A DNA stretch of 64,000 nt. Origin: Candidatus Omnitrophota bacterium. GTDB lineage: Bacteria > Omnitrophota > Gorgyraeia > Gygaellales > Profunditerraquicolaceae. The position numbers and the translations under genes are program-made. The DNA lies in contig JAQURC010000001.1 of the NCBI GenBank assembly GCA_028715785.1, positions 12,766-76,765 on the forward strand, written 5' to 3'. The notes below the pieces were generated by a model. It did no database searches. It worked only from the letters and a program-made list of their open reading frames with translations, and was not told where the DNA came from. The first letter of the stretch is position 1. Each line of letters starts with the position of its first letter. Of the stretch, positions 14,198 to 51,892 are shown one piece after another.

Positions 14198-14251
14198 CAC
14201 CCCGCGCTTATAGGAATTGCGCGGGTGTGCCCTTGTGGGCTAGGAGAATAA
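14198..14251 (+). promoter_or_regulatory. Conserved two-hairpin 5' leader element (copy 1) ending in AGGAG-N7-ATG of the acp gene
   Basis: CCCCGCGCTTATAGGAATTGCGCGGGTGTGCCCTTGTGGGCTAGGAGAATAAATG. Same module upstream of rpsT, pilT and prfB. Confidence 0.6.
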
Positions 14252-14491
14252 ATGGATATAAAAATAAAAGTTAAAGAAGTGTTGGCGAATTTGCTAAAAG
14301 TTAAAATTGAAGAGTTAAAGGATGAGGTATCTTTGATCAACAGTATCGGCGTGGATTCTACCGAGATGGTGGAGTCGGTAATTGCCCTGGAAAAATCATT
14401 TGGGGTCAAGCTTAGCCCCAAGGAGATCACCAAGAATTCGACCATTAACGATATCGTAAATAATATCCAGCCAAAGTTATCCACAGAGTAG
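14252..14491 (+). CDS. Acyl carrier protein
   Basis: 79 aa. GVDSTEMVE phosphopantetheine-attachment motif. The stop TAG lies inside the REP palindrome. Confidence 0.8.
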   Translation: MDIKIKVKEVLANLLKVKIEELKDEVSLINSIGVDSTEMVESVIALEKSFGVKLSPKEITKNSTINDIVNNIQPKLSTE

Positions 14492-14513
14492 GGGAGGTTT
14501 AAACCTCCCCTAC
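14488..14513. repeat. 26-bp palindrome GTAGGGGAGGTTTAAACCTCCCCTAC (REP-like, copy 3), left flank TTATCCACAGA
   Basis: Identical core. Overlaps the acp stop codon. Confidence 0.8.
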
Positions 14514-14540
14514 TACGGGAATGGGAAAGGAGTTAGAGGG

Positions 14541-15341
14541 GTGAAGATTGTTGACTTGAGCCTGCCCATCGATGAAAAGGCTTTTGAGGTGCACAAGGTT
14601 GAGATCGAGCGGATAACCCATAAAGCCGGCGTCGATAAGTTCAACCGGGTGATTATGGGCAAGACCCTCTTAGGCAGAATAAAATACGCCTTAGGCGCCC
14701 GCATCGTCAGAAAGGGGCAGCTGCCCGATGAAGAATTCCTCTCTTTGGAGATTGTACATGCTCCGGTGCATATAGGAACACACCTGGATTACTCCTTCCA
14801 TTATGGATCAAAATCAGAAAATCGCCCTTCCAAGACCGCGGATGAGATCCCGTTAGAATATTGTTACCAGGACGGGGTTAAACTTGACTTCCGGCATAAA
14901 AGACCCAATGAAGTAATCAAGGCGCCGGATATAGAAAGCGCCCTGAAAAAGATAAATTATCAGCTTAAGCCTTTAGATATTGTGTTATTGCACACCGCCG
15001 CCGATAAGCTCTATGGCGGGCCAAAATATTTCTCGGATTATCCCGGGGTTGATCCTGGGGCCATCGGTTATCTTTTGGATAAAGGAATTAAAATCTTTGG
15101 CACAGACACGATGGGGATTGACCGGCCATACAAATTTATGCTTAAGGAATTCCTGGAAACAGGGGACCCCAAAACTTTTTATCCGGCGCATTTTTATGGA
15201 CGGAAAAGAGAATTTATTCATATAGAACGCCTGGCTAACTTAGAGAAGTTGCCGGATTGTGGATTTAAAATTATCTGTTTTCCTATACGCATCAAAAATA
15301 CCGGGGCCGCCTGGGCCAGAGTGGTGGCTTTTTTAGATTAA
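14541..15341 (+). CDS. Putative cyclase family protein (PF04199-like; kynurenine formamidase/polyketide cyclase fold)
   Basis: HAPVHIGTHLDYSFHYG matches the HxGTHxDxPxH cyclase signature. GTG start after AAGGAG. Confidence 0.7.
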   Translation: MKIVDLSLPIDEKAFEVHKVEIERITHKAGVDKFNRVIMGKTLLGRIKYALGARIVRKGQLPDEEFLSLEIVHAPVHIGTHLDYSFHYGSKSENRPSKTADEIPLEYCYQDGVKLDFRHKRPNEVIKAPDIESALKKINYQLKPLDIVLLHTAADKLYGGPKYFSDYPGVDPGAIGYLLDKGIKIFGTDTMGIDRPYKFMLKEFLETGDPKTFYPAHFYGRKREFIHIERLANLEKLPDCGFKIICFPIRIKNTGAAWARVVAFLD

Positions 15342-15455
15342 TGGCGTAAAACGGGTCCTGTCTTGGGTATTTTCTAGCGCTAAACGCGCGTCGAAAACAC
15401 CCAAGCCACCCGTTTTATCAAAATCTAAAAAAGCAAAATAATAGCGGAGGATGAA

Positions 15456-15896
15456 ATGGGACATACTTGCAATTCAATAATTATTAAGGCGCCTTATGAG
15501 TTAGTTTTTGATATCTCTAATGACATCCCGCGCTGGACGCAGTTGTTCGGCAGCGAATATAAAAAAGCCGAAATCCTAAAAAAAGAAGCCAACAAAATCA
15601 CTTTTCGCCTTACCGACGACGAAGATAAATCCTGGGTTTCCTGGAGATTGTTATACAAGGATAATTTCTTTACCTATTCGGAGCGCTATGAACCGAAATT
15701 CCCCTTTAATTATATGAAAATTATCTGGCTCTATACGCCAAAGCCCGAAGGGATAGAGTTAACTTGGATCCAGCATTTCCAGATGGATGAAAAGGCCAAG
15801 TTTAACGATGAGCAGGTGGAAGGTTTTATCAATAAACATTCCAAAGAGAACTTATTGATTTTTAAGAAGGTTATTGAAGAGGCAGCACTTAAATAA
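15456..15896 (+). CDS. SRPBCC superfamily protein (polyketide cyclase/dehydrase-like, Bet v1 fold)
   Basis: 146 aa. IIKAPYELVFDISNDIPRWTQLF N-terminus and overall pattern typical of Polyketide_cyc2/SRPBCC proteins. Confidence 0.55.
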   Translation: MGHTCNSIIIKAPYELVFDISNDIPRWTQLFGSEYKKAEILKKEANKITFRLTDDEDKSWVSWRLLYKDNFFTYSERYEPKFPFNYMKIIWLYTPKPEGIELTWIQHFQMDEKAKFNDEQVEGFINKHSKENLLIFKKVIEEAALK

Positions 15897-15910
15897 AGGT
15901 TATTCACAAT

Positions 15911-15936
15911 GTAGCGGACGTTTAAACGTCCGCTAC
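15911..15936. repeat. 26-bp palindrome GTAGCGGACGTTTAAACGTCCGCTAC (REP-like, copy 4; covariant arms)
   Basis: Same architecture and TTTAAA centre as 5776. Both arms changed in a complementary way. Confidence 0.75.
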
Positions 15937-15967
15937 GGTCAGGTTAGGATTATACGGGAGGTTAATT

Positions 15968-16744
15968 ATGAGCACAGATTTAAAAGGCAGGATTGCCATT
16001 GTTACCGGTGCCAGCCGCGGTATCGGTAAATCTTTAGCTTCAACCGCAGCAGGTTTGGGCATAAATTTAGTTATCGGCGCCAGAGGACAAGGCCCTTTAG
16101 AAGAAACTGCGGATGAGCTTGCCAGGAAATATAAGGTCCGGGTATTGCCGGTTGCCTGCGACGTCACAAAATTAGAGGACTTGGAAAATTTGGTAAACAA
16201 GGCTAAAGCTGAATTCGGCAAAGTCGATATTTTGATTAATTGCGCCGGAGTTTCCTCGCAATATCCTTTTAACGAGCAGCCGATCGAGGATTTTGAAAAA
16301 TTGGCGCATACGAATTATCTGGGCTATGTGCGGTTAATCCGCCTGGTAATTAACGATATGATCAAACAAAAATACGGGGCGATCATCAATATCGTTTCCG
16401 GCTCGACGCTGGTGGATCCTGTCCCCAGAAATTTCATTGTTTACAGCTCGCTTAAAGTCGGCCTGCGCGCTTTTTCAAAAGGCCTGTTTTGGGAGTTGCG
16501 CGACCACGGGATCAAGGTTACTTCTATTTTACCCGGAGTCACCGATACGGATTTAACCGGCAAGCTTAAGGATATTACCAGCGATACATCGCGCCTTATG
16601 AGCACGCAGGCAATCGAGGATGCGGTGCGTTTTGCTTTGACTGTGCCGGCTAATGTTTGTCCTCTTGAGATCTCGGTAATTAACCAACAAACACCTTGGA
16701 CTGCTCCGGTAATACCGTTTAAACAGCAGCACCCGGGAAAATAA
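15968..16744 (+). CDS. SDR-family oxidoreductase (ketoreductase-like)
   Basis: TGASRGIGKSLA cofactor motif. YSSLKVGLRAF (YxxxK) catalytic motif. Confidence 0.85.
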   Translation: MSTDLKGRIAIVTGASRGIGKSLASTAAGLGINLVIGARGQGPLEETADELARKYKVRVLPVACDVTKLEDLENLVNKAKAEFGKVDILINCAGVSSQYPFNEQPIEDFEKLAHTNYLGYVRLIRLVINDMIKQKYGAIINIVSGSTLVDPVPRNFIVYSSLKVGLRAFSKGLFWELRDHGIKVTSILPGVTDTDLTGKLKDITSDTSRLMSTQAIEDAVRFALTVPANVCPLEISVINQQTPWTAPVIPFKQQHPGK

Positions 16745-31273: not shown

Positions 31274-33673
31274 ATGCATTACGATTTTAAAAAGGTCGAA
31301 GAAAAATGGCAGAAGCACTGGCAGAAAACCCATGCCTTCCGCGCGCAGGCCGACCCTAAGCGCAAAAAATATTACCTGTTGGAAATGTTTCCCTATCCCA
31401 GCGGTAAAATCCATATGGGCCATGTGCGTAATTACACCATCGGCGATGTCGCCAGCCGTTTTAAGACCCTGGAAGGTTATAACGTAATGCACCCGATGGG
31501 TTTTGATGCCTTTGGCCAGCCGGCGGAGAACGCGGCGATAAAAAATAAAACCAAGCCCGGCGACTGGACGCGTAAATGCATCAAGGAGATGGAAACAGAG
31601 TTAAAAAAAATGGGTTTTTCTTATGACTGGGAGCGGGAAGTTTCTACCTGCCAAAGCGATTATTATCAATGGAACCAGTGGATCTTCCTCAAAATGCTTG
31701 AACGCGGCCTGGCGTATAGGAAGGCTTCGCAAGTCAACTGGTGCCCAAGCTGCGCCACGACTTTAGCCAATGAAGAAGTTATCGAAGGCGGCTGCTGGCG
31801 CTGCCATACAAAAGTAGAACAAAAAGATTTAGAGCAATGGTATTTAAAGATTACCGAATATAAAGAAAGGTTGCTGGAGGATTTGAGCCAGCTTAAAGAT
31901 TGGCCCCCGCGGGTTTTGGCAATGCAGAATAACTGGATCGGCAAAAGCAGCGGTGTGGATATTTATTTTCGCCTGGAGAATAGCGATAAATTAATTTCAG
32001 TATTTACTACCCGGGTGGATACTATTTTTGGGGCAACCTATATTGTTTTGGCCCCGGAGCACCCGTTAGTTTTAGATTTGATTAAAGGCACACGTCAGGA
32101 AAAAGAGGCCTTAGAGTTTATTAAAAAGGTTGCCAGCGAAAGTAAAATAGTGCGCGCCGCATCCGATGTTAAAAAAGAAGGGGTTTTTACCGGAAGCTTC
32201 GCGATTAATCCGGTAAATAATGAAAAGGTCCCGGTTTGGATTGCCGATTATGTTTTGATGGAATATGGAACGGGTGCGATTATGGCTGTGCCTACGCATG
32301 ACGGGCGGGATTTTCTTTTTGCCAAAGAGCATAAATTGCCGATGCGTATTGTCATCTCGCCTAAAGACGGGTCTTTAAAATCCGCGGAAGAATTAACGCA
32401 GGCATATGAAGGTAATGGCGTGCAAATAAATTCCGGAGAATTTAACGGCTTAGATAATCGGGAGGCAAAGACAAAGATCGCCCAATGGATGGAGGCTAGG
32501 GGCATTGGTAAAATTCAAACGCATTGGCGTTTACGTGATTGGTTGATTTCCCGCCAGCGTTATTGGGGCACCCCGATACCGGTGATTTATTGCCCGGCCT
32601 GCGGCATTGTTCCTGTCCCTTGTCAAGATTTACCCATTGAGCTGCCCGCTGATGCGCCTTTTACCGGAGAAGGCGGAAGCCCTTTAGGCAAGGTCAAGAA
32701 ATTTGTAGAGGTAAAATGTCCTAAGTGTAAAGCAAATGCCCGGCGCGAAACCGATACAATGGCCACTTTTTTTGACTCCTCATGGTATTTCTTAAGGTTC
32801 TGCTCGCCTAAATTTAAAGCCGGACCGTTTGATGTGAATGAAGCCAAATACTGGATGACCGTTGACCAGTATATCGGCGGCATTGAACACGCGATCTTGC
32901 ATTTATTGTATTCCCGTTTTTTTACTAAATTTTTCCAGGATTTAAAGATGGTTGATTTCAGCGAGCCATTCGATAAACTGCTCACTCAAGGGATGGTCCT
33001 AAAAGACGGCGAGGTTATGTCAAAGTCCAGGGGCAATATCGTTGATCCGGACTCAATGATCAAAAATTACGGCGCCGATGCCCTGCGCCTGTTTATCTTA
33101 TTTGCCGCTCCGCCGGAAACCGAGCTGGAGTGGGAGGAGCGCGGGTTAGAAGGAGCGTATAAATTTTTAAACCGTGTCTGGCGGATCCAGGAAAATTTAA
33201 AAGACGATGCAGATCCGCAGGTATTAAAAGCTTTACACAGGACGATAAAAAAAGTAGGCGCGGATTTTAGCGAATTTAAGTTTAACACGGCTATTGCCAG
33301 CTTAATGGAGTTGACCAACGTTATTTATCAGTCAGGCGCGGATAAACAGGTATTTTCTGCCTTGATAATTATGCTTAGCCCGATTGTCCCGCATTTTGCC
33401 GAGGAGCTTTGGCAGATTTTAGGGCATAAGGAAAGTATATTTAAAACCGGCTGGCCTAAATATGATCCCCAGTTATTGATTGAAGAAAAAGTGGAGTTGG
33501 TGATCCAGGTTAACGGTAAGCTGCGCAGTAAAATTGAAGTGCCATGCGGCATATCCGAAGATAAGCTTAAGGAGCTGGTATTTAAAGATGAGAAATTGGC
33601 CCCTTGGCTGGAAGGCAAAACCCCGAAGAAATTCATTCTTGTCCCGCAAAAACTCGTCAATATCGTAATCTAA
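31274..33673 (+). CDS. leuS: Leucyl-tRNA synthetase
   Basis: [13 protein letters not shown] (HIGH). VMSKSRGN (KMSKS). CP1 editing domain. 799 aa. Confidence 0.95.
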
Positions 33674-33676
33674 TAA

Positions 33677-34385
33677 GGGGGACGTCCTCTTAGGGGACAC
33701 CCTTATATTAAAATAATTGTTAGAAGCGGCCTCTTTTTACGTCAATTAAAGTAAAAGGAGGATTTTTTATGCCAAGAAAAGCGCGAGAGTTGATTGACGG
33801 GGGACATTACCATGTTGTAACCAGGGGGATTGATTGTAGGAGATTATTTAGGGATGAAACAGATAACCAGTATTTTTTAGACATCATGGCTGCTAATCTG
33901 CCGAAATTCAAAATTTCAATTTTTCATTATTGTCTTATGGTAAACCACATTCATCTGTTGATTAAAGCCATAAGAGCAGCGGATCTGCCAAAGTTTATGC
34001 AGGTAGTTTTACAAGGATACGCTCATTATTTCAGAAAGAAATACCTTTCGGCAGGATTTATTTTTCAGAACCGATATAGAAGCCGGTTAATCGATAATGA
34101 TCTCTATCTCTTGGAATGCGGCCGGTATATCGAAAAGAACCCTCTGAGATCAAAAATAGTGTCAGAGCTTTCCAGATATCGCTGGAGCAGTTATCTGCTA
34201 TATGCAACTGGTAAACAAAATGACATAGTTAAGGCATTGGATCCTTTATATTTAGATTTAGCCAGTACAGACGAGAAACGCAGGGAGGCGTATGTTAATT
34301 ATGTCTTACAGGGGCGGCCATATGAAGATATTTTAGATAAAGAATTTCATATCAAATAGGGTGTCCCTTTTTAGGACGTCCCCCC
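33677..34385 (+). mobile_element. REP-associated tyrosine transposase (RAYT) unit: tnpA-REP gene flanked by 26-bp inverted repeats
   Basis: Left IR GGGGGACGTCCTCTTAGGGGACACCC (33677-33702). Right IR GGTGTCCCTTTTTAGGACGTCCCCCC (34360-34385). They are reverse complements apart from the central loop. Confidence 0.75.
33769..34359 (+). CDS. IS200/IS605-like Y1 (HuH) transposase of the REP-associated (RAYT) type
   Basis: 196 aa. HuH motif GHYHVVTRG. Second His cluster NHIHLLI. Catalytic Tyr region QNRYRSRLIDND...RYIEKNP. Typical RAYT size. Confidence 0.8.
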   Translation: MPRKARELIDGGHYHVVTRGIDCRRLFRDETDNQYFLDIMAANLPKFKISIFHYCLMVNHIHLLIKAIRAADLPKFMQVVLQGYAHYFRKKYLSAGFIFQNRYRSRLIDNDLYLLECGRYIEKNPLRSKIVSELSRYRWSSYLLYATGKQNDIVKALDPLYLDLASTDEKRREAYVNYVLQGRPYEDILDKEFHIK

Positions 34386-34748
34386 AATTAAAACATCCTT
34401 AATGTCAAAAAGCAGTCTTTGGTAATCGATGGGTTTTTCGACATAGACGGTGATCCCGCTTTTGGCGGCGACATGCTTGTCGATCTCTTCATGTTTTAAG
34501 GAGGTGGCGATAATCGGTGTATCGATAAACTCCGGCAGGCTTTTTATATCCTGGGCGACTTTAAAACCGCTTTCATCCGGCAGGACCAGATCAAGGAGTA
34601 TGCAATCCGGTTTCTCCGCCTTAACTTTTTCTACGCCTTCCTTGCCGCTGTAGGCAGTTACTACCTGGTAACCCGCCTTAAGTAACGCTTCCTTATTTTC
34701 CTTGGCGATGTTGTAATCATCGTCAATGATCAGGATTTTCTTAGGCAT
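34371..34748 (-). CDS. Single-domain response regulator (CheY-like receiver)
   Basis: MPKKILIIDDD...ILLDLVLPDESG...ATSLKHE receiver motifs. Start chosen at MPKK, not the longer ORF-track frame. The stop overlaps the RAYT right IR. Confidence 0.75.
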   Translation of the reverse strand: MPKKILIIDDDYNIAKENKEALLKAGYQVVTAYSGKEGVEKVKAEKPDCILLDLVLPDESGFKVAQDIKSLPEFIDTPIIATSLKHEEIDKHVAAKSGITVYVEKPIDYQRLLFDIKDVLIGGTS

Positions 34749-36889: not shown

Positions 36890-37190
36890 TCAATATGCGG
36901 ATAGAAAAGAAATAAGCTTGAAAGGGGGTTGAAAATATTATTTTCCTGGGGGGTGTCGGATGCGCTGGATTTGACGCAGAAAGCAAGGGCATCCTAAGAA
37001 AAATATTACAAAAGGAGGCAGATTTATTTTTCATTTTGGGCGACCTTGTATGTTCGGGTACCGTATATTTATAACCGGCGGAGGCGGAGCGAGAATCTAC
37101 GAATTAGAAAAAGATAGGTTAAGGTCACGCCATGCCATAAGGCTGGATTTAGAGAATGATGATGCGGTAATTTTTGAAGTTATGCCTATT
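36890..37190 (+). pseudogene. Possible decayed calcineurin-like metallophosphoesterase gene remnant
   Basis: No ORF >60 aa in 470 bp of GC-elevated sequence. Frame fragments read MRIEKK*, ...KEADLFFILGDLVCSGTVYL* (GDxxxxG phosphoesterase-like) and ARIYELEKDRLRSRHAIRLDLENDDAVIFEV. A G6 homopolymer sits at the frame break. Confidence 0.25.
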
Positions 37191-37195
37191 ATATT

Positions 37196-37789
37196 ATGAA
37201 GAAAATACTTTTTCTGGCTGTTATTTTAATATTAATTTGCGCGGGAACCTCGCTTCTTTACCATAATACTCAACAAGCGGATATAAATTATTATCAAGGC
37301 CGTAGATTATTTGAAAAGGGCAAGTTCGAACAGGCAATGCAATTTTTTCATAAGGCTTCTGACGTAGAGCCATCACGGCTCGATGTGCTTAAAGATTTGG
37401 CTTATACCTACCAGTGGACGGGTGAATATGAGAAAGCAGCAAGTATCTTTCAACAAATTCTTTCCCTTAAGCCGCATGATAACGAGATAAAAAAATCCTT
37501 AGCCCAGACTTTAAGTTGGCGGAAAGAATACGAGAAAGCCATCCGGCTTTATAAAGAGGTTATCGCAGACTCAAATAGCCTTGATGCCAAGAGACAATTG
37601 GCCGAAGTCTATATATGGAATAATCAGTTTAAAGAAGCCAAGGAAATTCTGGCTGAGATTTTAAAGATAGCTCCCCAAGACAGGAAAGCGAAATTCTTGC
37701 TTGCCAAAGCCATGCAGTATTCCGGCCAGGCAGAACAGGCTATTAAGATCTACAAAGAGCTCTTAGAGGAGAGGAATAGAGATGAATAA
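37196..37789 (+). CDS. TPR-repeat protein (N-terminal TM/signal anchor)
   Basis: Multiple 34-aa TPR units (YYQGRRLFEKGKFEQAMQFF...). Confidence 0.7.
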   Translation: MKKILFLAVILILICAGTSLLYHNTQQADINYYQGRRLFEKGKFEQAMQFFHKASDVEPSRLDVLKDLAYTYQWTGEYEKAASIFQQILSLKPHDNEIKKSLAQTLSWRKEYEKAIRLYKEVIADSNSLDAKRQLAEVYIWNNQFKEAKEILAEILKIAPQDRKAKFLLAKAMQYSGQAEQAIKIYKELLEERNRDE

Positions 37790-39416: not shown

Positions 39417-39418
39417 CT

Positions 39419-40945
39419 ATGAAGTTAAATAAAATAGCCGTTTTCAATTTATTGCCTGTTTTTACCCTGATTGCCGTCTTAATTTATATTATTATCAGGG
39501 TGGGTTTATTTTTTATCGGCAGTTATTCAATAATAGACAGGGTTTTCGCTGTCATACTGATACTGGGGGATTTTTTTGTTCTTCTGCACAGCATTGGTTA
39601 TGCCTTGAATATTTTGAGGGTTGTCCCCGGCAAAAAAGGAAATTTAGCCGATGAAGCATCCGCAAAGGAAAAGTGGGAAGACTCGCCGCCGGTAGCCATC
39701 TTGGTTGCTGCCCGGCATGAGCCAAAAGAGGTTTTGGACGATACTTTTATGACGCTTTACAATCTTAATTACAGGAATAAAACAGTTTATTTCCTTGATG
39801 ACAGCTCCGAGGAAGAATATAAAAGAGAAGCTGAAGAATTAAGCAAGGAATATAATCTAAAACTTTTTAGAAGGGAACAAAGGCACGGCGCCAAGGCCGG
39901 GATTATAAACGATTGCCTTAAAAATCTGGCGGAGAAATACGTGGTTATTTTTGACGCTGACCAGAACCCTCTTCCGGATTTTTTGGGAGATCTCGTGCCG
40001 ATAATGGAGCAAAATGAAAGGCTTGGTTTTATACAGACACCCCAGTTTTACTCAAACATAGAAGAGACAAGAGTTGCCAGGGCTGCCGCATTTCAACAGG
40101 CGGTATTTTATGAATACATCTGCGAAGGAAAAGGTTCGGGCGGCGCGATGTTTTGTTGCGGAACCAATATTATTTTCAGGCGAGACGCTCTTTTAGATGT
40201 AGGCGGGCTTGATGAGTCTACGGTCACCGAGGATTTTGCCACTTCCGTTAAGCTGCATAGCCGCGGCTGGAAGTCGCTTTATTATAACCATGTATCCACC
40301 TTTGGGATGGCGCCCCAAGATCTCGTTGGTTATTTTAAGCAACAGTTCAGATGGGCAACAGGGACAATATCAGTGTTTAAAAAATTGCTCCGGAGATTCT
40401 TTACTCACCCCTTTTCCTTAAGGCCAATACAGTGGTGGGAATATTTTTTATCAAGTTCTTATTATTTGATAGGACTTGCTTTTTTCTGTTTGATGATTTG
40501 CCCGGTAGTATATCTTTTGTTTAAGGTGCCCTCATTTTTCGTCAAGCCGGAGATATATTTTGCGGCTTATTTACCTTACATCATCCTTTCAATGATGGTT
40601 TTTTATATTTTACTTGGTTCAAGAAGCTATAAGATAAAAGACTTATTTTTAGGCCAGCTGCTGGGGGTATGCACATTTTCTGTTTATATCAGGGCAGCAG
40701 TATCTGCTTTTTTAGGGGTTAAAACTACTTTTGGAATAACCGAAAAGACCAAAGGAAAGGCAACGCCGTATATAAAATTATGGCCTCAGCTAACTTTTAT
40801 GCTTTTAAATTTTATAGCCGCAGCCTGGGGTATAAATAGGTTTATCTATGAAAGAGAGCCGGCAATACTGGTTAACGGGTTCTGGGCTTTTTACCATTTT
40901 GGAATTTTATCCAGTATATTCTATTTTAACCAGGAAGCCAGATGA
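39419..40945 (+). CDS. Processive family-2 glycosyltransferase (cellulose/hyaluronan-synthase-like exopolysaccharide synthase), no PilZ domain
   Basis: YFLDDSSEE, VIFDADQNP (DxD), TVTEDFAT (TED) and QQFRWATG (QxxRW) motifs in order. 2+~5 TM segments. Confidence 0.8.
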   Translation: MKLNKIAVFNLLPVFTLIAVLIYIIIRVGLFFIGSYSIIDRVFAVILILGDFFVLLHSIGYALNILRVVPGKKGNLADEASAKEKWEDSPPVAILVAARHEPKEVLDDTFMTLYNLNYRNKTVYFLDDSSEEEYKREAEELSKEYNLKLFRREQRHGAKAGIINDCLKNLAEKYVVIFDADQNPLPDFLGDLVPIMEQNERLGFIQTPQFYSNIEETRVARAAAFQQAVFYEYICEGKGSGGAMFCCGTNIIFRRDALLDVGGLDESTVTEDFATSVKLHSRGWKSLYYNHVSTFGMAPQDLVGYFKQQFRWATGTISVFKKLLRRFFTHPFSLRPIQWWEYFLSSSYYLIGLAFFCLMICPVVYLLFKVPSFFVKPEIYFAAYLPYIILSMMVFYILLGSRSYKIKDLFLGQLLGVCTFSVYIRAAVSAFLGVKTTFGITEKTKGKATPYIKLWPQLTFMLLNFIAAAWGINRFIYEREPAILVNGFWAFYHFGILSSIFYFNQEAR

Positions 40946-41886
40946 GAAATTTATTTTGGATAGGAATCTTTGTTTTGGTTGTTGCAAGCGCCGCCGCGCT
41001 TATTTACCATGGAAGAACAGGCTCATATTGTTATACGGGAGCATTCTTGACGGATAACCCAGCCAAAGATGATATAACTAATTTTAAAAATAGGTATGGG
41101 AAAAAGCCGTTTCTGGTTATGGTTTTTATTGATTGGGATAAATTTTTAGATGACAGAGTGATAAAAGATGTCTATTCGCAAGGCAGTGTTTTATGCGTTA
41201 CCTGGGAACCCTGGAACGCGCAGACTCAAGAAGGCATTAATTTTGATGAGCTGTTAGCGGGAAAATATGATAAATACATAACTGATTTATCCTTGCAGCT
41301 TAAGAATATCGAAAAGGGTGTTTTTATCAGGTTTGGCCATGAAATGAACGGGAATTGGTATCCTTGGGCTGGAACTAAGATAGGCGGGGATAAGTTTATC
41401 GCGGCATATAAATATGTAAAAGACATATTTGATAAAACAGGCGCAATTAATGTAAAATGGGTTTTTTCCATAAACTGGGAGGACGCGCCCAAAGAAAATA
41501 ACTCCTTTGTATCGTATTATCCCGGCGACGCATACGTAGATTATATCGGCATAGACGGTTATAATTGGGGCAATACAAAGCCGTGGAGCAGGTGGCTGAG
41601 TTTCCGCGATATTTTCTTAAAGGTTTACAATACTATTGTTGAGAATTATAATAAGCCTGTATTAATAACGGAATTCAGCTCTACTGGTAAGGGGGGAGAT
41701 AAGGCAGGCTGGATTAAGGGGGCGATGAGCGAAATCAAGAAAATGAAAAAAATAAAGGCATTTGTCTTATTTAACGCCGACAAAGAGACAGATTGGAGTT
41801 TTCCGCATAACAGCGGATGCGCAGAGGAGCTTAAAAGGCAGCTGAAGAGCCCATATTTTATAGACATGCCGGGAGAAAACCTATGA
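40942..41886 (+). CDS. Glycoside hydrolase, GH26-like (beta-mannanase/mixed-linkage glucanase fold)
   Basis: RFGHEMNGNWYPW (acid/base Glu) and LITEFS (nucleophile Glu) blocks. N-terminal signal anchor. Confidence 0.6.
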   Translation: MRNLFWIGIFVLVVASAAALIYHGRTGSYCYTGAFLTDNPAKDDITNFKNRYGKKPFLVMVFIDWDKFLDDRVIKDVYSQGSVLCVTWEPWNAQTQEGINFDELLAGKYDKYITDLSLQLKNIEKGVFIRFGHEMNGNWYPWAGTKIGGDKFIAAYKYVKDIFDKTGAINVKWVFSINWEDAPKENNSFVSYYPGDAYVDYIGIDGYNWGNTKPWSRWLSFRDIFLKVYNTIVENYNKPVLITEFSSTGKGGDKAGWIKGAMSEIKKMKKIKAFVLFNADKETDWSFPHNSGCAEELKRQLKSPYFIDMPGENL

Positions 41887-42122
41887 TAAAAAAAGAAGAG
41901 CTGTTGAAATTCTTAAAAGAGGCCGAGGTATTGGAAGAAAAAAGCATACCTGTTTATACTAAACATCTTGACAGCACCTTATTTCTCTCCGGATTCAGTA
42001 AAGAGGAGCAGGAGGAACTAAAGAAAGTTCTTTTAATCCTGAAGAAAGGGTCAGAAGAACATAGAGAAATATACGAAGATTTAATTAATAAGATAAGGGA
42101 GTCCGCTAAAGATGTTTACTAA
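41883..42122 (+). CDS. Small hypothetical protein (helical, EExxH-like motifs)
   Basis: 79 aa. Overlaps flanking genes by 4 bp/11 bp, suggesting translational coupling inside the EPS operon. Confidence 0.35.
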   Translation: MIKKEELLKFLKEAEVLEEKSIPVYTKHLDSTLFLSGFSKEEQEELKKVLLILKKGSEEHREIYEDLINKIRESAKDVY

Positions 42123-42639
42123 AGAAGATTATAAGAAATACTTTGAACAGCTTGCCGGGATTGAAAGGCTTATGATATACCTTGTCAGGGACATGCTTCT
42201 TTTGATAGAAGATGAGGGGTTAAAGGATACGCTAAGCCGGATTGCAAGCGATGAAGTAAGGCATTATGAATATGTAAAGCAGTTATTTGACAGCCTCTTG
42301 TTAGGTGGCGAGCAAGACAAGCGGCAGTTTGTCCGCCGCCATTCATTAGGCAGAATGAAAATAAAAGTTGTGGGTAAAGATATCATTTTTGATGCATATT
42401 GCGCGAATATTTCCCAGACAGGAGTATGCATAGAATTTGAAGGGGGAAAAGCGCCCGAAGGCGATCTTGAGTTATGGATTGAGTTTTTTGATAAACAAGA
42501 ACCCCAGCATCATTTCGGCAGGATTGTGTGGTCTGCGCAAATAGATCCGGAATTGAGCGTGGGAAAGATAAATTATAAAGGAGGGTTAGAGTTTCAAGAA
42601 AAAGCGGCCTATTATGAAAATAATTTTAAAAAAAGCTAA
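42112..42639 (+). CDS. Stand-alone PilZ-domain (c-di-GMP receptor-like) protein
   Basis: C-terminal RRHSLGR...NISQTGVCI matches the PilZ RxxxR / (D/N)xSxxG motifs. Immediately downstream of the GT2 synthase locus. Confidence 0.55.
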   Translation: MFTKEDYKKYFEQLAGIERLMIYLVRDMLLLIEDEGLKDTLSRIASDEVRHYEYVKQLFDSLLLGGEQDKRQFVRRHSLGRMKIKVVGKDIIFDAYCANISQTGVCIEFEGGKAPEGDLELWIEFFDKQEPQHHFGRIVWSAQIDPELSVGKINYKGGLEFQEKAAYYENNFKKS

Positions 42640-42873
42640 CCATATCAGTTAACGTTGGGGGAAAAGGCATTAGGATTCAAACCTACCTTTTAAAAAACTC
42701 CCACCTAAGAGATATCCTGAAAATGCAAAATATGTAACTGTAAATATAGGCCTGTCCGGCTTGATTTATCCGCATCCGGCCGGCCTTTTTAGCGCTCCTG
42801 CCTCGATGTCGATCAATTTACTCTTAACCATAAATGCCATCATGGTTAAGCTGCCGTTTGCCTATATTTACCT

Positions 42874-42902
42874 TTGACAAAGCCATTCGGCTATGCTAAA
42901 TT
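42874..42902 (+). promoter_or_regulatory. Sigma70-like promoter (TTGACA-N17-TAAATT) ~9 nt upstream of the bamD ATG (leaderless-type)
   Basis: Perfect -35 hexamer. AT-rich -10. No SD. Confidence 0.4.
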
Positions 42903-42911
42903 CATAATATT

Positions 42912-45316: not shown

Positions 45317-45370
45317 ATATTCTCCTTGCCCAGAAGGGCATACCCGCGCAATTCCTTATAAGCGCGGGGT
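45317..45370 (-). promoter_or_regulatory. Conserved two-hairpin 5' leader element (copy 2, minus strand) directly upstream of rpsT
   Basis: Reverse complement CCCCGCGCTTATAAGGAATTGCGCGGGTATGCCCTTCTGGGCAAGGAGAATATATG. Confidence 0.6.
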
Positions 45371-45412
45371 ATTAATTTTATAGATTAATATTATTAACAT
45401 AATTAACCGCTC

Positions 45413-46963
45413 ATGTCAACAAACAAATATTCCTTAAATAGCCAGAATCAGGCGGTTGCCCGTTCAGCCGGGGTGATTAGCCTGGCTACCCTTGCCTCGC
45501 GCATCCTGGGATTTATAAGGGACATAGTCATCGCCCGGCTGTTTGGAATCTATGTTTATGCCCAGGCCTTTGTCATCGCTTTTCGCATACCCAACCTTTT
45601 CCGCGACCTGGTCGGCGAAGGGGCTTCTAATGCCGCGATTGTCCCGGTCTTAAGCGAATATAACCTTAAGCGTCCCAAAGAAGAGTTCTGGGAGCTGGCC
45701 AATCTCCTGCTTAACCTGCTTTTGGTTATACTTAGCGCAATAACCATACTGGGGATTATTTTTTCTCCGTTGATCGTGCGCCTGATTGCTCCCGGATTTA
45801 TTGCCTCTCCGGATAAGCTGCAGGCAACCATTAATTTAAACCGGATGATCTTTCCCTATATACTGCTTATCGGCCTGTCTGTTTATGCCATGGCCGTGCT
45901 TAACTCGCTGAAGAATTTTACGGTTTCGGCGTTTGCTCCCTGTTTTTTAAATATCTCGATAATTATTTGCTCTCTGCTTTTGGGGGAAGGCACAAAGGGC
46001 CTGGCAACCGGAGTCTTGCTGGGCGGCATCCTGCAGTTGGCAGTGCAGGTCCCGGTTTTGTATAAGAAAGGTTTCCGTCCAAAACTCAAGCTTGATTTTA
46101 AACATCCCGGGTTAATCCAGATTAAAAAATTAATGCTGCCGCGGCTGGCAAGTTCCGGCATTTACCAGCTGAATAATTTTGTGGATTCGATTTTCGGTTC
46201 GTTGGCCGCCGTTGTCGGAGACGGAGGGGTAGCCGTGCTTTATTTTGCCTATCGGCTTATCCAATTCCCCATAGGTATTTTTAGCAATGCCATTGCCCAG
46301 GCAATCCTGCCGACCTTCTCGACGCAGGTATTGGAAGACAGCCATGAGAACCTTAAAATTACCCTTTCCTGGGGGCTGCGCGCGGTTCTTTTTGTGATGT
46401 TACCGATAACCGCGCTTTTTATGGTTTTGGCCCAGCCTTTGGTTTTTACTTTTTTTGGCGGCGGCAGGTTTGATTCTCATTCGGGTTTTTTGACCAGCAA
46501 CGCCTTATTTTTCTATAGTATCGGCTTATGCGCTTACGGGAGCACGAAAATATTGCAATGCTGTTTTTTTGCCCTCAAGGATACGGCCACTCCCGCAAAA
46601 ATAGCCGGCCTTGCCCTGGTGATGAATGTTATCCTGAATACACTTTTGATGTTTCCGCTTAAAACCGGCGGCCTGGCTTTGGCAACCTCGATTTCCGGGA
46701 TAGCCGTTTTTTTTCTCCTGTTTTTTATTCTGGGCAGGCGCCTGGGAGGGTTCGGAGAACGTAAAATATTATTTTCGTTCCTGCGTATTTTTGCCGCATC
46801 CAGCTGCATGGCCGGCGTCTGTTTCCTGGTGAACCGGGCCTTAAACCTTGGCTGGGCGTTATTTTGCGGGGTTTTATCTTATATTGTTTTTTGTTTTATT
46901 TTTGGCGTCGTTGAATTAAAAGAGCTTATCCGGAAATTCTTATGGGGAAGGTACAAGATCTAA
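45413..46963 (+). CDS. murJ: Lipid II flippase MurJ (MviN)
   Basis: 516 aa, 14 TM. N-terminal ARSAGVISLATLASRILGFIRDIVIARLFG and FRIPNLFRDLVGEGA blocks. Confidence 0.9.
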   Translation: MSTNKYSLNSQNQAVARSAGVISLATLASRILGFIRDIVIARLFGIYVYAQAFVIAFRIPNLFRDLVGEGASNAAIVPVLSEYNLKRPKEEFWELANLLLNLLLVILSAITILGIIFSPLIVRLIAPGFIASPDKLQATINLNRMIFPYILLIGLSVYAMAVLNSLKNFTVSAFAPCFLNISIIICSLLLGEGTKGLATGVLLGGILQLAVQVPVLYKKGFRPKLKLDFKHPGLIQIKKLMLPRLASSGIYQLNNFVDSIFGSLAAVVGDGGVAVLYFAYRLIQFPIGIFSNAIAQAILPTFSTQVLEDSHENLKITLSWGLRAVLFVMLPITALFMVLAQPLVFTFFGGGRFDSHSGFLTSNALFFYSIGLCAYGSTKILQCCFFALKDTATPAKIAGLALVMNVILNTLLMFPLKTGGLALATSISGIAVFFLLFFILGRRLGGFGERKILFSFLRIFAASSCMAGVCFLVNRALNLGWALFCGVLSYIVFCFIFGVVELKELIRKFLWGRYKI

Positions 46964-49151: not shown

Positions 49152-50637
49152 GAGAGTGTTCTTAAGGCGCGCCTTGGAAATTATACCCGGAGGATTGTCC
49201 TGGGGGGTAATCATTTCGTTGATCCTCTTGTCTATTGTGCATCCGGTAGCCAGCGCCATAATAATCATTACTTTTGATTTCTATTGGATTATTCGCACGG
49301 TTTATCTGACCACTCTTTTGATCATGGCGCATCACCGGCTTTTCCAGCTTCGGCGCGAGGATTGGCTGCAGCGTTGTTTGGGGCTGCCCAAAGATAAAGG
49401 TTTCTTGCGATTGTATCAATTAATCATATTTCCGGTTTATAACGAGGGCCTGGAGGTCTTGCGGCCGTCTTTGTCCGCTTTAAGCAGGAGCCATTACCCG
49501 GAAGAAAGGATTATCGTGGTTATGGCTTTTGAAGAACGCAATATCCACGCGCATGATAATGCTTTAATTTTGGAAAAAGAATTTGCCGGCCGGTTCGGCG
49601 CCTATTTGTCCACCTTCCATCCCGATGGTTTATCCGGGGAGGCCCGGACCAAAGGGGCAAACGCCACCTGGAGCGCTAAAGCTGCCAGAAAATTCATCGA
49701 TAGCCGCAAGATTGCTTATGAAGATGTGATCGTTTCCTGTTTTGACGCGGATACCTGTGTCGAGCCGCAATATCTTGGGTGTCTGAGTTACCATTTTTTG
49801 ACTTCCGATAAGAAACATCAGGCAAGTTACCAGCCGATGCCGGTTTATAATAATAATATCTGGCAGGCCCCTTCCTTTGCCAGGCTGGTTGAGATCAGCA
49901 GTTCATTTTGCCAGTTGATTGAAAGCATGCGCCTGGAAAAGTTCGTTACATTTTCAAGCCACAGCATGAGTTTTAAGACGCTGGTGGAGGTGGATTATTG
50001 GCCGACGAACATGATCTCCGATGATTCGGTGATCTATTGGAAAGGGTATCTGCATTATAACGGAGATTACCGGGTGGTACCGTTATATATCACGGTTTCC
50101 ATGGACGTGGCTTATTCCAGCAATATCTGGCGGACCATTGTTGTGCAGTATAAGCAGAAGAGGAGATGGGCCTGGGGGGTGGAGAATTTTCCTTTCGTCG
50201 TCGATGGATTTATAAAAAATAAAGATATCCCGCTGGCCAATAAATTAAGGAGGTCATTCCATCTTTTAGAAAGCCATGTCACCTGGGCCGTCTGGGCGTT
50301 TATACTTGTGGTGATCGGATACCTGCCCATACTTTTCGGCGGGGCTTTTTTCAGCCAGATGGCCATTGCTTATAATTTACCGAAAATCACCGGATTATTA
50401 TTCCGGTTTACTTTGTTGACCAGTTTGACCTGGATATTCTTAAGCTGGACAATTTTGCCTCCGAAACCTAAAGGGGTCAGTGTATTTAAGAATGTGCTTT
50501 TGGTTTTGGAGTGGGTCTTTGTCCCGTTTATAATCTTGATTGTCGGTTCCTTCCCGGCAATCGATGCCCAGAGCCGGCTGATGTTTGCCAAATATATGGA
50601 ATTTAATCCTACGTTAAAAGGGGATAAGGTGTTATAA
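49144..50637 (+). CDS. Membrane-embedded family-2 glycosyltransferase-like protein
   Basis: SCFDADT (DxD-like), ISDDS and QYKQKRRWAWG (QxxRW-like) motifs with N- and C-terminal TM clusters. Confidence 0.55.
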   Translation: MNKRVFLRRALEIIPGGLSWGVIISLILLSIVHPVASAIIIITFDFYWIIRTVYLTTLLIMAHHRLFQLRREDWLQRCLGLPKDKGFLRLYQLIIFPVYNEGLEVLRPSLSALSRSHYPEERIIVVMAFEERNIHAHDNALILEKEFAGRFGAYLSTFHPDGLSGEARTKGANATWSAKAARKFIDSRKIAYEDVIVSCFDADTCVEPQYLGCLSYHFLTSDKKHQASYQPMPVYNNNIWQAPSFARLVEISSSFCQLIESMRLEKFVTFSSHSMSFKTLVEVDYWPTNMISDDSVIYWKGYLHYNGDYRVVPLYITVSMDVAYSSNIWRTIVVQYKQKRRWAWGVENFPFVVDGFIKNKDIPLANKLRRSFHLLESHVTWAVWAFILVVIGYLPILFGGAFFSQMAIAYNLPKITGLLFRFTLLTSLTWIFLSWTILPPKPKGVSVFKNVLLVLEWVFVPFIILIVGSFPAIDAQSRLMFAKYMEFNPTLKGDKVL

Positions 50638-50645
50638 TATTTATC

Positions 50646-50699
50646 CACTCCGCGCTTATAATGTATTGCGCGGGTGTGTCCTTATGGGCAGGAGGGAAA
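50646..50699 (+). promoter_or_regulatory. Conserved two-hairpin 5' leader element (copy 3) directly upstream of pilT
   Basis: CTCCGCGCTTATAATGTATTGCGCGGGTGTGTCCTTATGGGCAGGAGGGAAAATG. The G-U wobble in hairpin 2 keeps the pairing. Confidence 0.6.
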
Positions 50700-51773
50700 A
50701 TGGATATTAAGAAATTATTGCGGGAAATGGTGGACAAGAACGCCTCGGATCTTTTTTACCGTGCCGGAGGCACCCCCCGCCTGCGAATTGACGGCAAAAT
50801 CGTCTCTATGGATACCAAGGTTTTAAGCATGGAAGAGGTTATGTTTGCTACCGAACAGCTGGCTAGTGCCAAGCAGCTGGAAGTCTTCAGAAACTACCTG
50901 GACGTGGATTTTGCGGTATACCTGGATGAATTCAGGCGCCGTTTCCGGGTAAGTATATTTACGCAGAGAAATTGGCCTTCAATCGTTATTCGAAATGTGC
51001 GCAACAGTATAGCTACATTTGAAGAGCTGAATCTTCCTGCCGAGATATTTAAAAAACTCTCTATGGAAACCCGCGGCCTTGTGCTTCTGACCGGAAGTAT
51101 GGGCAGCGGCAAGTCCACGACGATTGCCAGCATGATCGAATATATCAATAATAACTCCAAAAAACACATCTTGACTGCCGAGGAGCCGATTGAGTTTACC
51201 TTCGAAGACAAGCAGTCAATTATCAACCAGCGGGAGCTGGGGGTCGATGTCACAACTTATTCCACCGCCCTGCGCGCCTTTACCCTGCAGAGCCCGGATG
51301 TGATGTTTATCGGCAATATCCGCGATTATGAAACCGTCTCCAGCGCCATTGCCGCCGCGGAAACCGGGGTTTTGGTTTTGAGCACTTTGCACACAATTAA
51401 TGCTTCCCAGTCCGTGGAAAGATTGATCAACTTTTTCCCTCCGCACCAGCATCAGGAGGTAAAGAATCAGTTGGCCTCGCTGCTTAAAGGGATAATTTCA
51501 TTACGCCTGGTGCCTGCTAAGCATGGTGTCGGAAGGGTCCCCGCTTATGAGATTATGCTTTTGACCCCCACGATCAGCCGCCTGATCCGCGAAGGAAAGA
51601 TTTGGGAGATCCCCGATTTTATCGACGATGGAGCGGTATTCGGTATGCAGTCGTTTACCCAATCTTTGGTTAAATTAGTTCATGAAGGCAAAATAAGCCT
51701 GGAGGATGCCACGCTTGCCGCGGATAGCCGCGAAGAATTTATGCTGGCCTACAGGGGGATCAAGAAATCTTAA
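50700..51773 (+). CDS. pilT: Type IV pilus retraction ATPase PilT
   Basis: Walker A LLTGSMGSGKSTT. No N-terminal GSPII_E_N domain and no tetracysteine. PilT-specific C-terminal region. ~358 aa. Confidence 0.85.
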   Translation: MDIKKLLREMVDKNASDLFYRAGGTPRLRIDGKIVSMDTKVLSMEEVMFATEQLASAKQLEVFRNYLDVDFAVYLDEFRRRFRVSIFTQRNWPSIVIRNVRNSIATFEELNLPAEIFKKLSMETRGLVLLTGSMGSGKSTTIASMIEYINNNSKKHILTAEEPIEFTFEDKQSIINQRELGVDVTTYSTALRAFTLQSPDVMFIGNIRDYETVSSAIAAAETGVLVLSTLHTINASQSVERLINFFPPHQHQEVKNQLASLLKGIISLRLVPAKHGVGRVPAYEIMLLTPTISRLIREGKIWEIPDFIDDGAVFGMQSFTQSLVKLVHEGKISLEDATLAADSREEFMLAYRGIKKS

Positions 51774-51837
51774 TGCAACAGTTTCCTCTTCACCTTGGGA
51801 ACTGCTTACGACCCAATCGGGAAATGGGGCCTAAGAC

Positions 51838-51892
51838 ACCCCGCGCTTATAAGGTATTGCGCGGGTCTGCCCTTGCGGGCAAGGAGATAATT
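51838..51892 (+). promoter_or_regulatory. Conserved two-hairpin 5' leader element (copy 4) directly upstream of prfB
   Basis: CCCCGCGCTTATAAGGTATTGCGCGGGTCTGCCCTTGCGGGCAAGGAGATAATTATG. Confidence 0.6.

Follow-up and report, generated by a model that had tools for sequence, protein, structure and literature searches.

The window analysed here, a stretch of 64,000 nt from Candidatus Omnitrophota bacterium (contig JAQURC010000001.1, positions 12,766 to 76,765, forward strand), contains exactly four copies of a module of about 46 nt, against a chance expectation of none. They precede genes encoding an ACP-like carrier protein, S20, PilT and RF2, which bears out the assignments acp, rpsT, pilT and prfB made in an earlier, sequence-only reading. 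Copy 1 (14198..14246, + strand; covariance model 70 bits) lies before the ACP-like gene (ATG 14252) and downstream of the rSAM gene, whose stop codon is at 14190-14192. It comprises the tag CACC (14198-14201), the arms of hairpin 1 (14201-14207 and 14219-14225) around a loop of 11 nt (14208-14218), hairpin 2 (14228-14241) and the Shine-Dalgarno sequence (SD) AGGAG (14242-14246); carrying a 1-nt deletion in the loop, this copy was found via a pattern for the 3′ half. Copy 2 (45322..45372, − strand; 75 bits) occupies the 5′-UTR of rpsT (ATG 45316), with hairpin 1 arms at 45368-45362 and 45349-45343, loop at 45361-45350, hairpin 2 at 45340-45327 and SD at 45326-45322. Copy 3 (50646..50695, + strand; 59 bits) precedes pilT (ATG 50700); its hairpin 1 arms (50649-50655 and 50668-50674) include a U-G closing pair and enclose the loop 50656-50667, followed by hairpin 2 (50677-50690) and the SD GGAGG (50691-50695). 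Copy 4 (51836..51886, + strand; 69 bits), before prfB (ATG 51893), has hairpin 1 arms at 51840-51846 and 51859-51865, loop at 51847-51858, hairpin 2 at 51868-51881 and the resident SD at 51882-51886.

Pattern search, shuffles, covariance model and predicted folds agree that this four-copy, two-hairpin module is real. A 26-nt core with up to three mismatches was recovered from three window copies and from none of 100 shuffles, while the covariance model, run with filters off, returned only these four copies in the window (58.8-75.1 bits), the next match reaching 11 bits. All four copies were predicted to fold into two hairpins, with SD and AUG left unpaired. The layout proposed from the sequence stands, except that the gap from SD to ATG is 4-6 nt and not 6-8 and that prfB really starts at 51893; hairpin 1 was likewise drawn correctly, and extends by two more pairs (A-U and a covarying C-G/U-A) across a bulged C. 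Within the module of 46 nt, which opens with the 5′ tag R-Y-A-C-C, hairpin 1 takes up 26-33 nt with a covarying stem of 7-9 bp, and is a short palindromic stem-loop with a family consensus, as in REP sequences of about 14-40 nt. Both stems covary: 90% of cells were paired, double changes occurred in 10 of 14 pairs and none of 500 shuffles was as good. The loop keeps its 3′ half, GGAAUU, and stem variants such as CCGACGC/GCGTCGG, CCGGCGC/GCGCCGG and CCAACGC/GCGTTGG, among others, retain the GGAATT loop, the invariance of stem, TTATA and ATT in most copies being partly imposed by the search pattern. The orthologue of the pilT copy in the related locus L103 carries a compensatory stem change, to CCGGCGC/GCGCCGG. 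The abrupt onset of conservation seen in the window was confirmed in 86 independent copies, with an information content of about zero upstream of −6. Wobble pairs in hairpin 1 (15 G-U and 13 A-C) do not tell the strands apart, so that the hairpin could equally matter as single-stranded DNA. A scan against Rfam 15 returned only tRNAs and RNase P RNA, the best match of the element scoring 14.8 bits against a threshold of 49.

Of 101 GTDB genome stretches with the core, about 95 belong to roughly 45 Omnitrophota MAGs; the six matches outside Omnitrophota comprised the core only and were as many as expected by chance. Besides the four copies in the 64 kb of the window, there are 1-10 exact cores per MAG, and loci not selected for the element hold about one per 40-100 kb, so that multiple copies per genome occur as for REPs, though in modest number. 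Intergenic positions are taken by the four window copies and about 120 others, and in 14 cases the overlap with the upstream ORF is confined to its last codons; the element is thus extragenic and, judging from operon position and upstream promoters, co-transcribed, again as REPs are. Other copies adjoin tRNA genes in both orientations (L013, L071, L001), follow the RNase P RNA gene rnpB or gene ends, or form tandem and nested arrays upstream of promoters, and a role in ribosome binding is impossible for copies at tRNA genes, after RNase P RNA or in such arrays. Judged by its sequence and distribution, the element is a REP-like, lineage-specific family of short interspersed palindromic repeats of Candidatus Omnitrophota.

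The placement of copies is sense-biased and, for those with a canonical hairpin 2, tied to the SD. Eighty-nine copies are co-oriented with both neighbouring genes and 6 opposed (p=5e-20). Copies with a canonical hairpin 2 end 0-4 nt upstream of the resident SD even in roomy intergenic space: abutment was observed for 52/69 of them versus 12/59 of the others (p=6e-10), and in roomy spacers for 16/20 versus 5/31. The junction itself varies, with 0-4 A between GGGCA and GGAG. Most copies start 0-9 nt past the stop codon of an upstream gene that runs in the same direction, and some supply that stop; even where the SD falls within the upstream ORF, as at L22/S3, the element keeps its place at the SD, and the TAA of its loop provides a new end for that ORF. 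Among the downstream genes are those for EF-Tu, GroES, DnaK, ClpB, S3, S8, S16, S20, L6, L20, L35 and L7/L12, together with ATP synthase c, P-II, Amt, PEPCK and MetK, and ribosomal-protein genes are over-represented (p~1e-4).

Many orthologous pairs of filled and empty sites preserve the SD and its spacing, close relatives lacking the element at the same genes. At prfB, comparison with L103, where the site is empty, shows bases 51836-51881 to be a clean insertion of 46 nt, and this copy is absent from 20 RF2-related loci of relatives. The window also holds empty sites, all on the + strand: the stop/SD junction before the rSAM gene (12717..12731), filled in the orthologous junction of L019; 58803..58810, whose orthologous junction in L034 (2430-2475) has a variant-stem copy; and 60281..60295, where the orthologous L034 junction (3932-3982) has a canonical copy. 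None of eight filled/empty junctions showed a target-site duplication, and the module is asymmetric, hairpin 1 then hairpin 2, which sets it apart from classical MITEs with terminal inverted repeats and target-site duplication. Read from these comparisons, the element is inserted DNA. The earlier suggestion of a portable cassette in the 5′-UTR therefore holds, in that orthologous sites are insertion-polymorphic and the element sits in transcribed leader or intercistronic RNA.

The same reading had offered a portable promoter. As such, the element would have TATAAK in the loop as its −10 box, and transcription would start in the 3′ arm of hairpin 1. Loop hexamers do resemble TATAAG/TATAAT, and the downstream genes are functionally unrelated, but the box is just the 5′ half of the hairpin 1 loop, its final T is missing in most copies and a 1-nt deletion shortens it in about 20. 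Across the 86 independent copies no −35 or TG extension is conserved at any fixed upstream distance, and the element accordingly has neither the −35/−10 pair at 16-18 nt spacing nor the TG-extended −10 of sigma-70 promoters. Within operons, moreover, it comes right after stop codons or holds the stop codon itself, where any promoter would fall inside the upstream coding sequence. Genuine signals are already present upstream of the element: rpsT has a sigma-70-type promoter, TTGACA-18-AATAAT (45390..45419, − strand; 11/12 matches), upstream of copy 2, which is kept in the syntenic relative L191, itself without the element, and groES has a perfect CIRCE operator. The lack of a conserved upstream signal, the intercistronic sites and these upstream elements identify the module as transcribed leader or intercistronic RNA and not a promoter, a role that we regard as extremely improbable. 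An extended −10-like TGTTATAAT (50630..50638, + strand), conserved in L103, lies 7 nt before copy 3, where it overlaps the upstream gene's stop codon, and, if active, would start the pilT mRNA at the foot of hairpin 1. Termination or attenuation of the upstream gene could be suspected from a GC-rich hairpin right behind stop codons and from the arrays behind rnpB and gene ends; nevertheless, neither hairpin has a U-tract in either orientation, no T-run of the kind found at intrinsic terminators lies beside the element on either strand, the 3′ flank is A-rich and leads into the SD, and copies inside ribosomal-protein operons need read-through, all of which makes a terminator very unlikely.

A candidate for mobilising the element lies in the window itself. 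This RAYT-like Y1/HUH transposase gene (33769-34359, within 33671..34390, + strand) has 33-nt inverted repeats at 33671-33703 and 34358-34390. Its product matches PF01797 with 52 bits (cutoff 23) and has 4ER8 TnpArep as its best PDB profile match, and with H60, H62 and Y120 invariant both the HUH motif and the catalytic Tyr are intact; the NCBIfam RAYT model scores 54, below its cutoff of 80. The gene is conserved in the lineage with conserved synteny, and its Y1_Tnp fold, single copy, vertical inheritance and flanking inverted repeats are those of a RAYT gene at 33.8 kb. Its involvement is possible, though its flanks belong to another repeat family: at 12/12 loci examined, RAYT homologues are flanked by GGGGACGTCC-N5-GGGACACCC, and REPIN-like doublets of this repeat in L040, L067 and L191 form a family separate from the element. 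Only CACCC/GGGTG is common to the two, as the foot of hairpin 1 and as the inner ends of the RAYT inverted repeats; in L184, a half element adjoins the RAYT inverted repeat, with a full copy nearby.

As a whole, the observations are best explained by a REP-like interspersed repeat kept as a cis-acting mRNA module, an explanation in which we place roughly even confidence. The element most likely acts on mRNA, and among the roles proposed earlier an mRNA-stabilising stem-loop appears the most plausible; its effects on RNA stability, processing and translation, like the means of mobilisation, are what we infer from the sequence. New copies would enter the few non-coding nucleotides that separate a stop codon, or a 5′-UTR, from the resident SD. 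The sense transcript would then contain first a GC-clamped hairpin, whose AU-rich loop is conserved, and next a small second hairpin ending 0-4 nt before the SD. Such a barrier or processing point could part the cistrons, giving the downstream one a protected, structured 5′ end and the upstream one a structured 3′ end, and it could act as an insulator that keeps SD and AUG single-stranded regardless of the upstream sequence. The loop might even provide a defined endonuclease site, since its end, G-N-A-U-U, fits the RNase E motif RN|WUU (PMC5222698), a fit of low information content. Copies would be preferentially retained at highly expressed genes.

Three other views share part of this evidence. 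The element may be a mobile translation-initiation module, a hairpin cassette homing to, or selectively retained, immediately 5′ of SDs; by protecting or processing the 5′ end and insulating the RBS, it would raise or buffer downstream expression, and the conserved loop might be read by a nuclease or binding protein specialised for it. This is a tentative possibility. Rather doubtful is a selfish or neutral hairpin transposon that is non-autonomous and relies on a Y1/HUH enzyme, of RAYT or IS200/IS605 type, for its movement. Its position at SDs and its sense bias would then stem from the choice of target, for instance by guide pairing to CTCCT/AGGAG or through single-stranded DNA being accessible where genes are heavily transcribed, together with purifying selection, and the host would gain nothing. 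Insertions are clean and lack target-site duplication, as those of the IS200/IS605 type do; copies occur in tandem or nested, and in both orientations at tRNA genes; and SD abutment depends on hairpin 2 type, as a guide-defined target would give. These features are consistent with a transposon, as are the lineage-conserved RAYT-like gene with its intact HUH and Tyr, the shared CACCC/GGGTG and the half element of L184. However, every RAYT homologue examined has the other repeat at its flanks, the variable SD junction speaks against a single fixed cleavage or target site, the compensatory stem change in the orthologous pilT copy shows maintenance after insertion, and without a constraint at the RNA level it is difficult to account for the 89:6 sense bias or for the surplus of copies at highly expressed genes. 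An RNA operator, in which a trans-acting RNA-binding protein or sRNA would read the loop and foot of hairpin 1 beside the SD and abundant housekeeping genes would form a translational or stability regulon, has in its favour a conserved loop GGAAUU and foot CAC...GUG on a covarying stem, the classic signature of a recognised hairpin, as well as the fixed geometry relative to the SD and a sequence kept across many species. Yet loop conservation is largely imposed by the search pattern, gene occupancy shifts between close relatives, unlike a regulon, further copies adjoin tRNA genes, follow rnpB or form arrays, and no candidate factor was found, leaving an operator clearly unlikely. A CsrA-type dual site, which needs one GGA in the loop and another in the SD, was rejected, the loop having GGA in only 56/94 copies and GGU in 27, with 2/4 window copies devoid of GGA.

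Stabiliser hairpins of the ompA 5′-UTR type, and the synthetic insulator parts that mimic them, likewise have a stem-loop near the 5′ end and a hairpin right before an exposed RBS, and are portable between genes; those are single-gene features, whereas the element is a dispersed, self-similar family. In the REP/BIME sequences of Proteobacteria, too, imperfect GC-rich palindromes of small size follow a family consensus; they are extragenic yet transcribed, often lie in intercistronic spacers or no more than 15 nt from a stop codon, and occur in several copies per genome, in clusters, alongside a RAYT-type Y1 gene. According to PMC12306157, which cites Liang 2015 (PMC4427526), REP-type elements are established to act on the stability of mRNA and, close to stop codons, on its translation, with mRNA stabilisation and ribosome stalling as RNA-level effects. 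The element differs from them in being almost exclusively sense, in its second hairpin and fixed abutment to the downstream SD, in its conserved 12-nt loop and its tag R-Y-A-C-C instead of GTAG/CGTC, in arrays that are direct or nested and not alternating inverted, in copies numbering tens and not the hundreds of E. coli or Pseudomonas, and in a RAYT flanked by another repeat. With the IS200/IS605-derived PATEs and with REPINs it shares hairpin ends, the lack of classical terminal inverted repeats and target-site duplication, and insertion beside a specific sequence of short length; PATEs and REPINs depend on a Y1/HUH enzyme whose gene lies elsewhere, as the element may. In contrast to these, no autonomous parent with its ends was found and its SD junction varies by 0-4 A. 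Correia/ERIC-type MITEs, which change the expression of adjacent genes and affect processing and stability, are also small, structured, co-transcribed insertions in 5′-UTRs or between cistrons, but they have terminal inverted repeats and TA duplications, occur in both orientations, measure 100-150 bp and keep no set position relative to the SD. Putative mobile promoters and reused 5′ regions (PMC3488235, PMC3575422) resemble the element as near-identical upstream sequences before non-homologous genes, within and between genomes, whereas what is reused here is a leader module of 46 nt that lies past the TSS or within operons.

Descriptions of interspersed palindromes usually treat them as passengers at gene 3′ ends that have no preferred orientation. 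This family is instead almost always sense, tied to the RBS and enriched before ribosomal-protein, chaperone and central-metabolism genes, and it is conserved over many uncultured Omnitrophota species while single insertions are gained and lost. It can be used as an annotation marker for operon junctions and 5′-UTRs in Omnitrophota MAGs, and gives a testable handle on RNA biology in a phylum without a genetic system. If the RNA-level role is true, the element would be a natural portable leader part, both stabiliser and RBS insulator, and expression would evolve via inserted post-transcriptional modules; if it serves as a mobile module of translation initiation, the output of housekeeping genes in a candidate phylum would be rewired by copying and pasting a post-transcriptional part, and not promoters.

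Four copies of the element occur in the window, at 14198-14246 (+) before acp, 45372-45322 (-) before rpsT, 50646-50695 (+) before pilT and 51836-51886 (+) before prfB, all of them recovered both by motif search and by the covariance model R1. The genes on their 3′ side encode an ACP-like carrier protein, ribosomal protein S20, PilT and RF2. A 26-nt core allowing at most three mismatches retrieved three copies and had no match in 100 dinucleotide-preserving shuffles, while the acp copy, with a 1-base deletion in its loop, was picked up through the motif's 3′ half. Run on the window without filters, R1 returned exactly four matches (58.8-75.1 bits), the next best reaching 11 bits. The module proposed by the sequence-only reading upstream of these four genes is thereby borne out, and the two hairpins it drew in each copy are supported by the predicted folds of all four, which leave both SD and AUG unpaired. 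Hairpin 1 is indeed present, but its stem is longer than was described, and the gap between SD and ATG is 4-6 nt instead of 6-8 nt. A general habit of small hairpins before SDs was ruled out, as the survey of the window's genome found one in only 1 of 56 candidate starts, that one being an element copy.

The surroundings of these copies show further features. ORF0 of prfB (51893-51964) starts at 51893 and ends in a classical programmed +1 frameshift site, TAT CTT TGA C (51956-51965), the main frame running to 52991. Right after the pilT stop, at 51783-51812, there is a hairpin CAGTTTCC...GGGAACTG, which lacks a U-tract and is kept in the orthologous locus L103. The acp locus (10179-16744) lies outside any standard fab operon. 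Two ketosynthases, a B12-binding radical SAM enzyme, the ACP, an uncharacterised protein, a cyclase/dehydrase-like protein and an SDR ketoreductase are clustered there, an arrangement suggestive of a specialised pathway for lipids or polyketides.

Alignment of 94 distinct copies (A2) gave a consensus of R-Y-A-C-C / CCGCGC / UUAUAAGG(A/U)AUU / GCGCGG / G-U-R-U, followed by hairpin 2 (typically UGCCC-UUNU-GGGCA), A and AGGAG. On the proposed structure 90% of the alignment cells are paired and both partners have changed in 10 of the 14 pairs, values matched by none of 500 shuffles. Exact-match seeds make the stem invariant by construction, and independent evidence was therefore sought in four other places. 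Covariation is seen in the closing pair, which the search pattern did not include (C-G 67, U-A 14, U-G 4; ACACC...GGGUGU versus AUACC...GGGUAU), and hairpin 2 covaries freely. A structure-only scan yielded 11 copies with variant stems, including CCGACGC/GCGUCGG, CUGGCGC/GCGCCAG, CCGGCGC/GCGCCGG, CCAACGC/GCGUUGG and CCGGCCC/GGGCCGG, eight of which keep GGAAUU as the 3′ half of the loop, and a compensatory stem change separates the pilT copy of the window from its orthologue in L103. Wobble pairs (15 G-U versus 13 A-C) are uninformative as to strand, so that both RNA strands, or single-stranded DNA, could form the hairpin equally well. A CsrA site was rejected, given that the loop GGA is not conserved.

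When the flanks of every copy were compared by BLAST with all loci, many orthologous pairs turned out to be filled with the element in one genome and empty in the other. The prfB junction is the clearest example: there the empty locus L103 reads ...ggggttctaat|AGGAGaaagatATG and the window ...ggggcctaag[46 nt]AGGAGataattATG, and none of 20 loci with an RF2 at least 69% identical carries this copy. Conversely, three junctions that are empty in the window are filled elsewhere, 12717-12731 in L019 and both 58803-58810 and 60281-60295 in L034. Filled and empty members of a pair keep the resident SD at an unchanged distance from the start codon. Neither a target-site duplication nor a strict target motif was found at the filled/empty junctions, the sole flank preferences being (A)GGAG immediately 3′ and TAR immediately 5′, the latter in many cases the stop codon. 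Copies also form tandem arrays (L066, after the RNase P RNA, L009 and L057) and are nested, a whole unit lying within the loop of another between AAGG and AAUU (L005, L007, L014, L055, L066, L096, L099 and L190). The element is thus an insertion-polymorphic repeat family. In L066 (7116-7835), the RNase P RNA (7116-7464) is followed by nested and tandem units up to the contig end, the last of them near-identical 52-nt tandem repeats. Relatives have unrelated long palindromic inserts before the acp orthologue (L019:3712-3810) and in the rpsT 5′-UTR (L191:13165-13275, hairpin GTCATTGCGAGCGA...TCGCTCGCAATGA); the acp and rpsT junctions serve hairpin elements generally as landing sites.

A scan of GTDB with one genome per species, using the pattern CCGCGCTTATA-N3-5-ATTGCGCGG, matched 101 stretches. 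About 95 of them belong to some 45 MAGs labelled Candidatus Omnitrophota or 'Planctomycetales', and the flanks of the element in the latter bins align to Omnitrophota loci. The six matches in other phyla consist of the 24-nt core alone and are close to the number that 20 specified bases would yield by chance in 1.2e12 positions. The count of exact cores in a MAG is 1-10, and loci fetched independently of the motif contained one match in 164 kb (RF2 relatives) and three in ~120 kb (RAYT neighbourhoods), which together indicate a family of low to moderate copy number, perhaps tens per genome; the window is comparatively rich in it. The scanned viral contigs held no copy, no Rfam family matched the element, and full-text literature searches for Omnitrophota repeats or hairpins found nothing relevant. 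Three MAGs (L065, L068 and L084), one labelled Patescibacteria, are 100% identical around one shared copy, which suggests shared or mis-binned contigs.

A promoter had been among the candidate roles, and the TATAAK box lies in the 5′ half of the hairpin 1 loop. Conservation does begin as abruptly as was claimed, with information content close to zero at all positions upstream of -6 in 86 independent copies, and hence neither a -35 nor a TG extension is present. About half of the copies begin 0-9 nt past a co-directional stop codon. At rpsT, a TTGACA-18-AATAAT promoter stands upstream of the element and is kept in the syntenic L191, which lacks the element, and at groES (L023:4365-4430(-) and L038) it is likewise preceded by a perfect CIRCE, the HrcA operator (TTAGCACTC-N9-GAGTGCTAA), and by an extended -10. 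On these grounds a promoter function was rejected. At pilT a conserved TGTTATAAT is located 7 nt upstream of the element and would put the transcription start at the foot of hairpin 1. An intrinsic terminator was excluded as well, since no T-run follows hairpin 1 or hairpin 2 on either strand.

Both neighbouring ORFs run in the direction of the element for 89 of ~125 copies and against it for 6 (p=5e-20). Of copies with a canonical hairpin 2, 52 of 69 abut an SD that has a start codon and an ORF, compared with 12 of 59 for other forms of hairpin 2 (p=6e-10). This abutment does not merely arise from cramped operon junctions, as it holds at sites with at least 40 nt free upstream (16/20 versus 5/31). 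Where the downstream SD lies inside the upstream ORF (L22 to S3, L017 versus L095) the element is still at the SD, and 14 cases were counted in which the upstream ORF is re-ended at the loop UAA. The orientation rule breaks down in non-coding contexts: at tRNA-Arg(CCU), the upstream copy is sense and the downstream one antisense in L013, an antisense copy lies upstream in L071 and no element is present in L006 and L081, and an antisense copy after tRNA-Thr is kept in four genomes.

The 60 non-redundant downstream proteins scanned include, for translation and as chaperones, HSP70, EF-Tu, GroES and a Clp ATPase; ribosomal proteins S3, S8, S16, S20, L6, L20, L35 and L7/L12; for energy and nitrogen, ATP synthase c, P-II (twice), Amt and a type III glutamine synthetase; for central metabolism, PEPCK, CdhD and MetK; for envelope and chromosome, Skp (twice), BamA and SMC; and many lipoproteins. 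Eight ribosomal-protein families in ~58 genes represent a ~5-fold excess (p~1e-4).

A RAYT-like Y1/HUH transposase gene is present in the window at 33769-34359 (33671-34390 including 33-nt inverted repeats). Its product matches Pfam Y1_Tnp with 52 bits, its best NCBIfam model is 'REP-associated tyrosine transposase', below the cutoff of that model, and neither the HUH histidines nor the RYIxxNP tyrosine varies among 24 homologues. Phmmer against PDB gave no match, and it was a profile search that reached E. coli TnpA-REP (4ER8) as top match. The synteny LeuRS-RAYT-response regulator-ComEA-ComEC is conserved in relatives and, together with the inverted-repeat flanks, is the behaviour expected of a RAYT. 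Between ComEC and a BamD-like gene, a ~6.2-kb block (~36730-42910; G+C 0.39-0.41 versus 0.45-0.48) encodes TPR, GT2 and GH26-like proteins and is likely an insertion or variable region, being absent from the otherwise syntenic L191.

At each of the 12 loci inspected the RAYT is flanked by a different repeat, GGGGACGTCC-N5-GGGACACCC, of which RAYT-less doublets also occur (L040:4751-4850, L067:6093-6196 and L191:4335-4393), and tblastn against all motif-seeded loci detected no second RAYT and none with element flanks. The inner ends of the RAYT inverted repeats are identical to the foot of hairpin 1 (CACCC...GGGUG), and in L184 half an element lies by the left repeat of the RAYT, with a full copy 120 nt downstream. 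These links are no more than suggestive, the RAYT being at most a possible mobiliser. Three tandem GGGTGCAAAT units lead from the half element of L184 (2820-2866; ACACCCCGCGC...CGGGTG) into the left inverted repeat. The element as a simple deletion derivative of the RAYT unit was rejected, the CGCGC/GCGCG clamp and hairpin 2 having no counterpart there.

Our results establish a conserved two-hairpin structure that is sense-oriented and abuts the SD, and its sequence context places it in what would be transcribed leader or intercistronic RNA. We infer that it acts in cis on mRNA. According to a rival view, it is a selfish hairpin transposon whose target choice creates the pattern; the bias towards abundant products fits either insertion into heavily transcribed DNA or selection for an expression-favouring leader. 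Alternatively, it could be an RNA operator of some trans factor. The reading as a leader or stabiliser is retained as the best hypothesis. Hairpins that stabilise mRNA from its 5′ terminus are a known kind of mRNA part, and analogy with these and with REPs underlies the three roles proposed here, namely that the element might punctuate polycistronic RNA, provide a structured 5′ end for the downstream cistron and hold the RBS open. REPs, according to PMC12306157 (citing Liang 2015), stabilise transcripts and influence ribosomes near stop codons. The core motif of RNase E is RN|WUU (PMC5222698), and the conserved loop end G-N-A-U-U fits it, a low-information match in a loop whose conservation is partly imposed by the search pattern; the loop could therefore be a defined cleavage site, at which RNase E might cut.

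Like REPs, the element is extragenic, palindromic and short, with a consensus and multiple copies, whereas their mechanistic hallmarks, a GTAG tag, alternating clusters and a RAYT gene between copies of the same repeat, are lacking here or not clearly displayed. It differs from every described family in the joint presence of four traits: its copies are almost exclusively sense-oriented, carry a second hairpin, lie directly against the SD and are conserved across a large lineage of uncultured bacteria. The element is hence REP-like by description, yet distinct in that combination.
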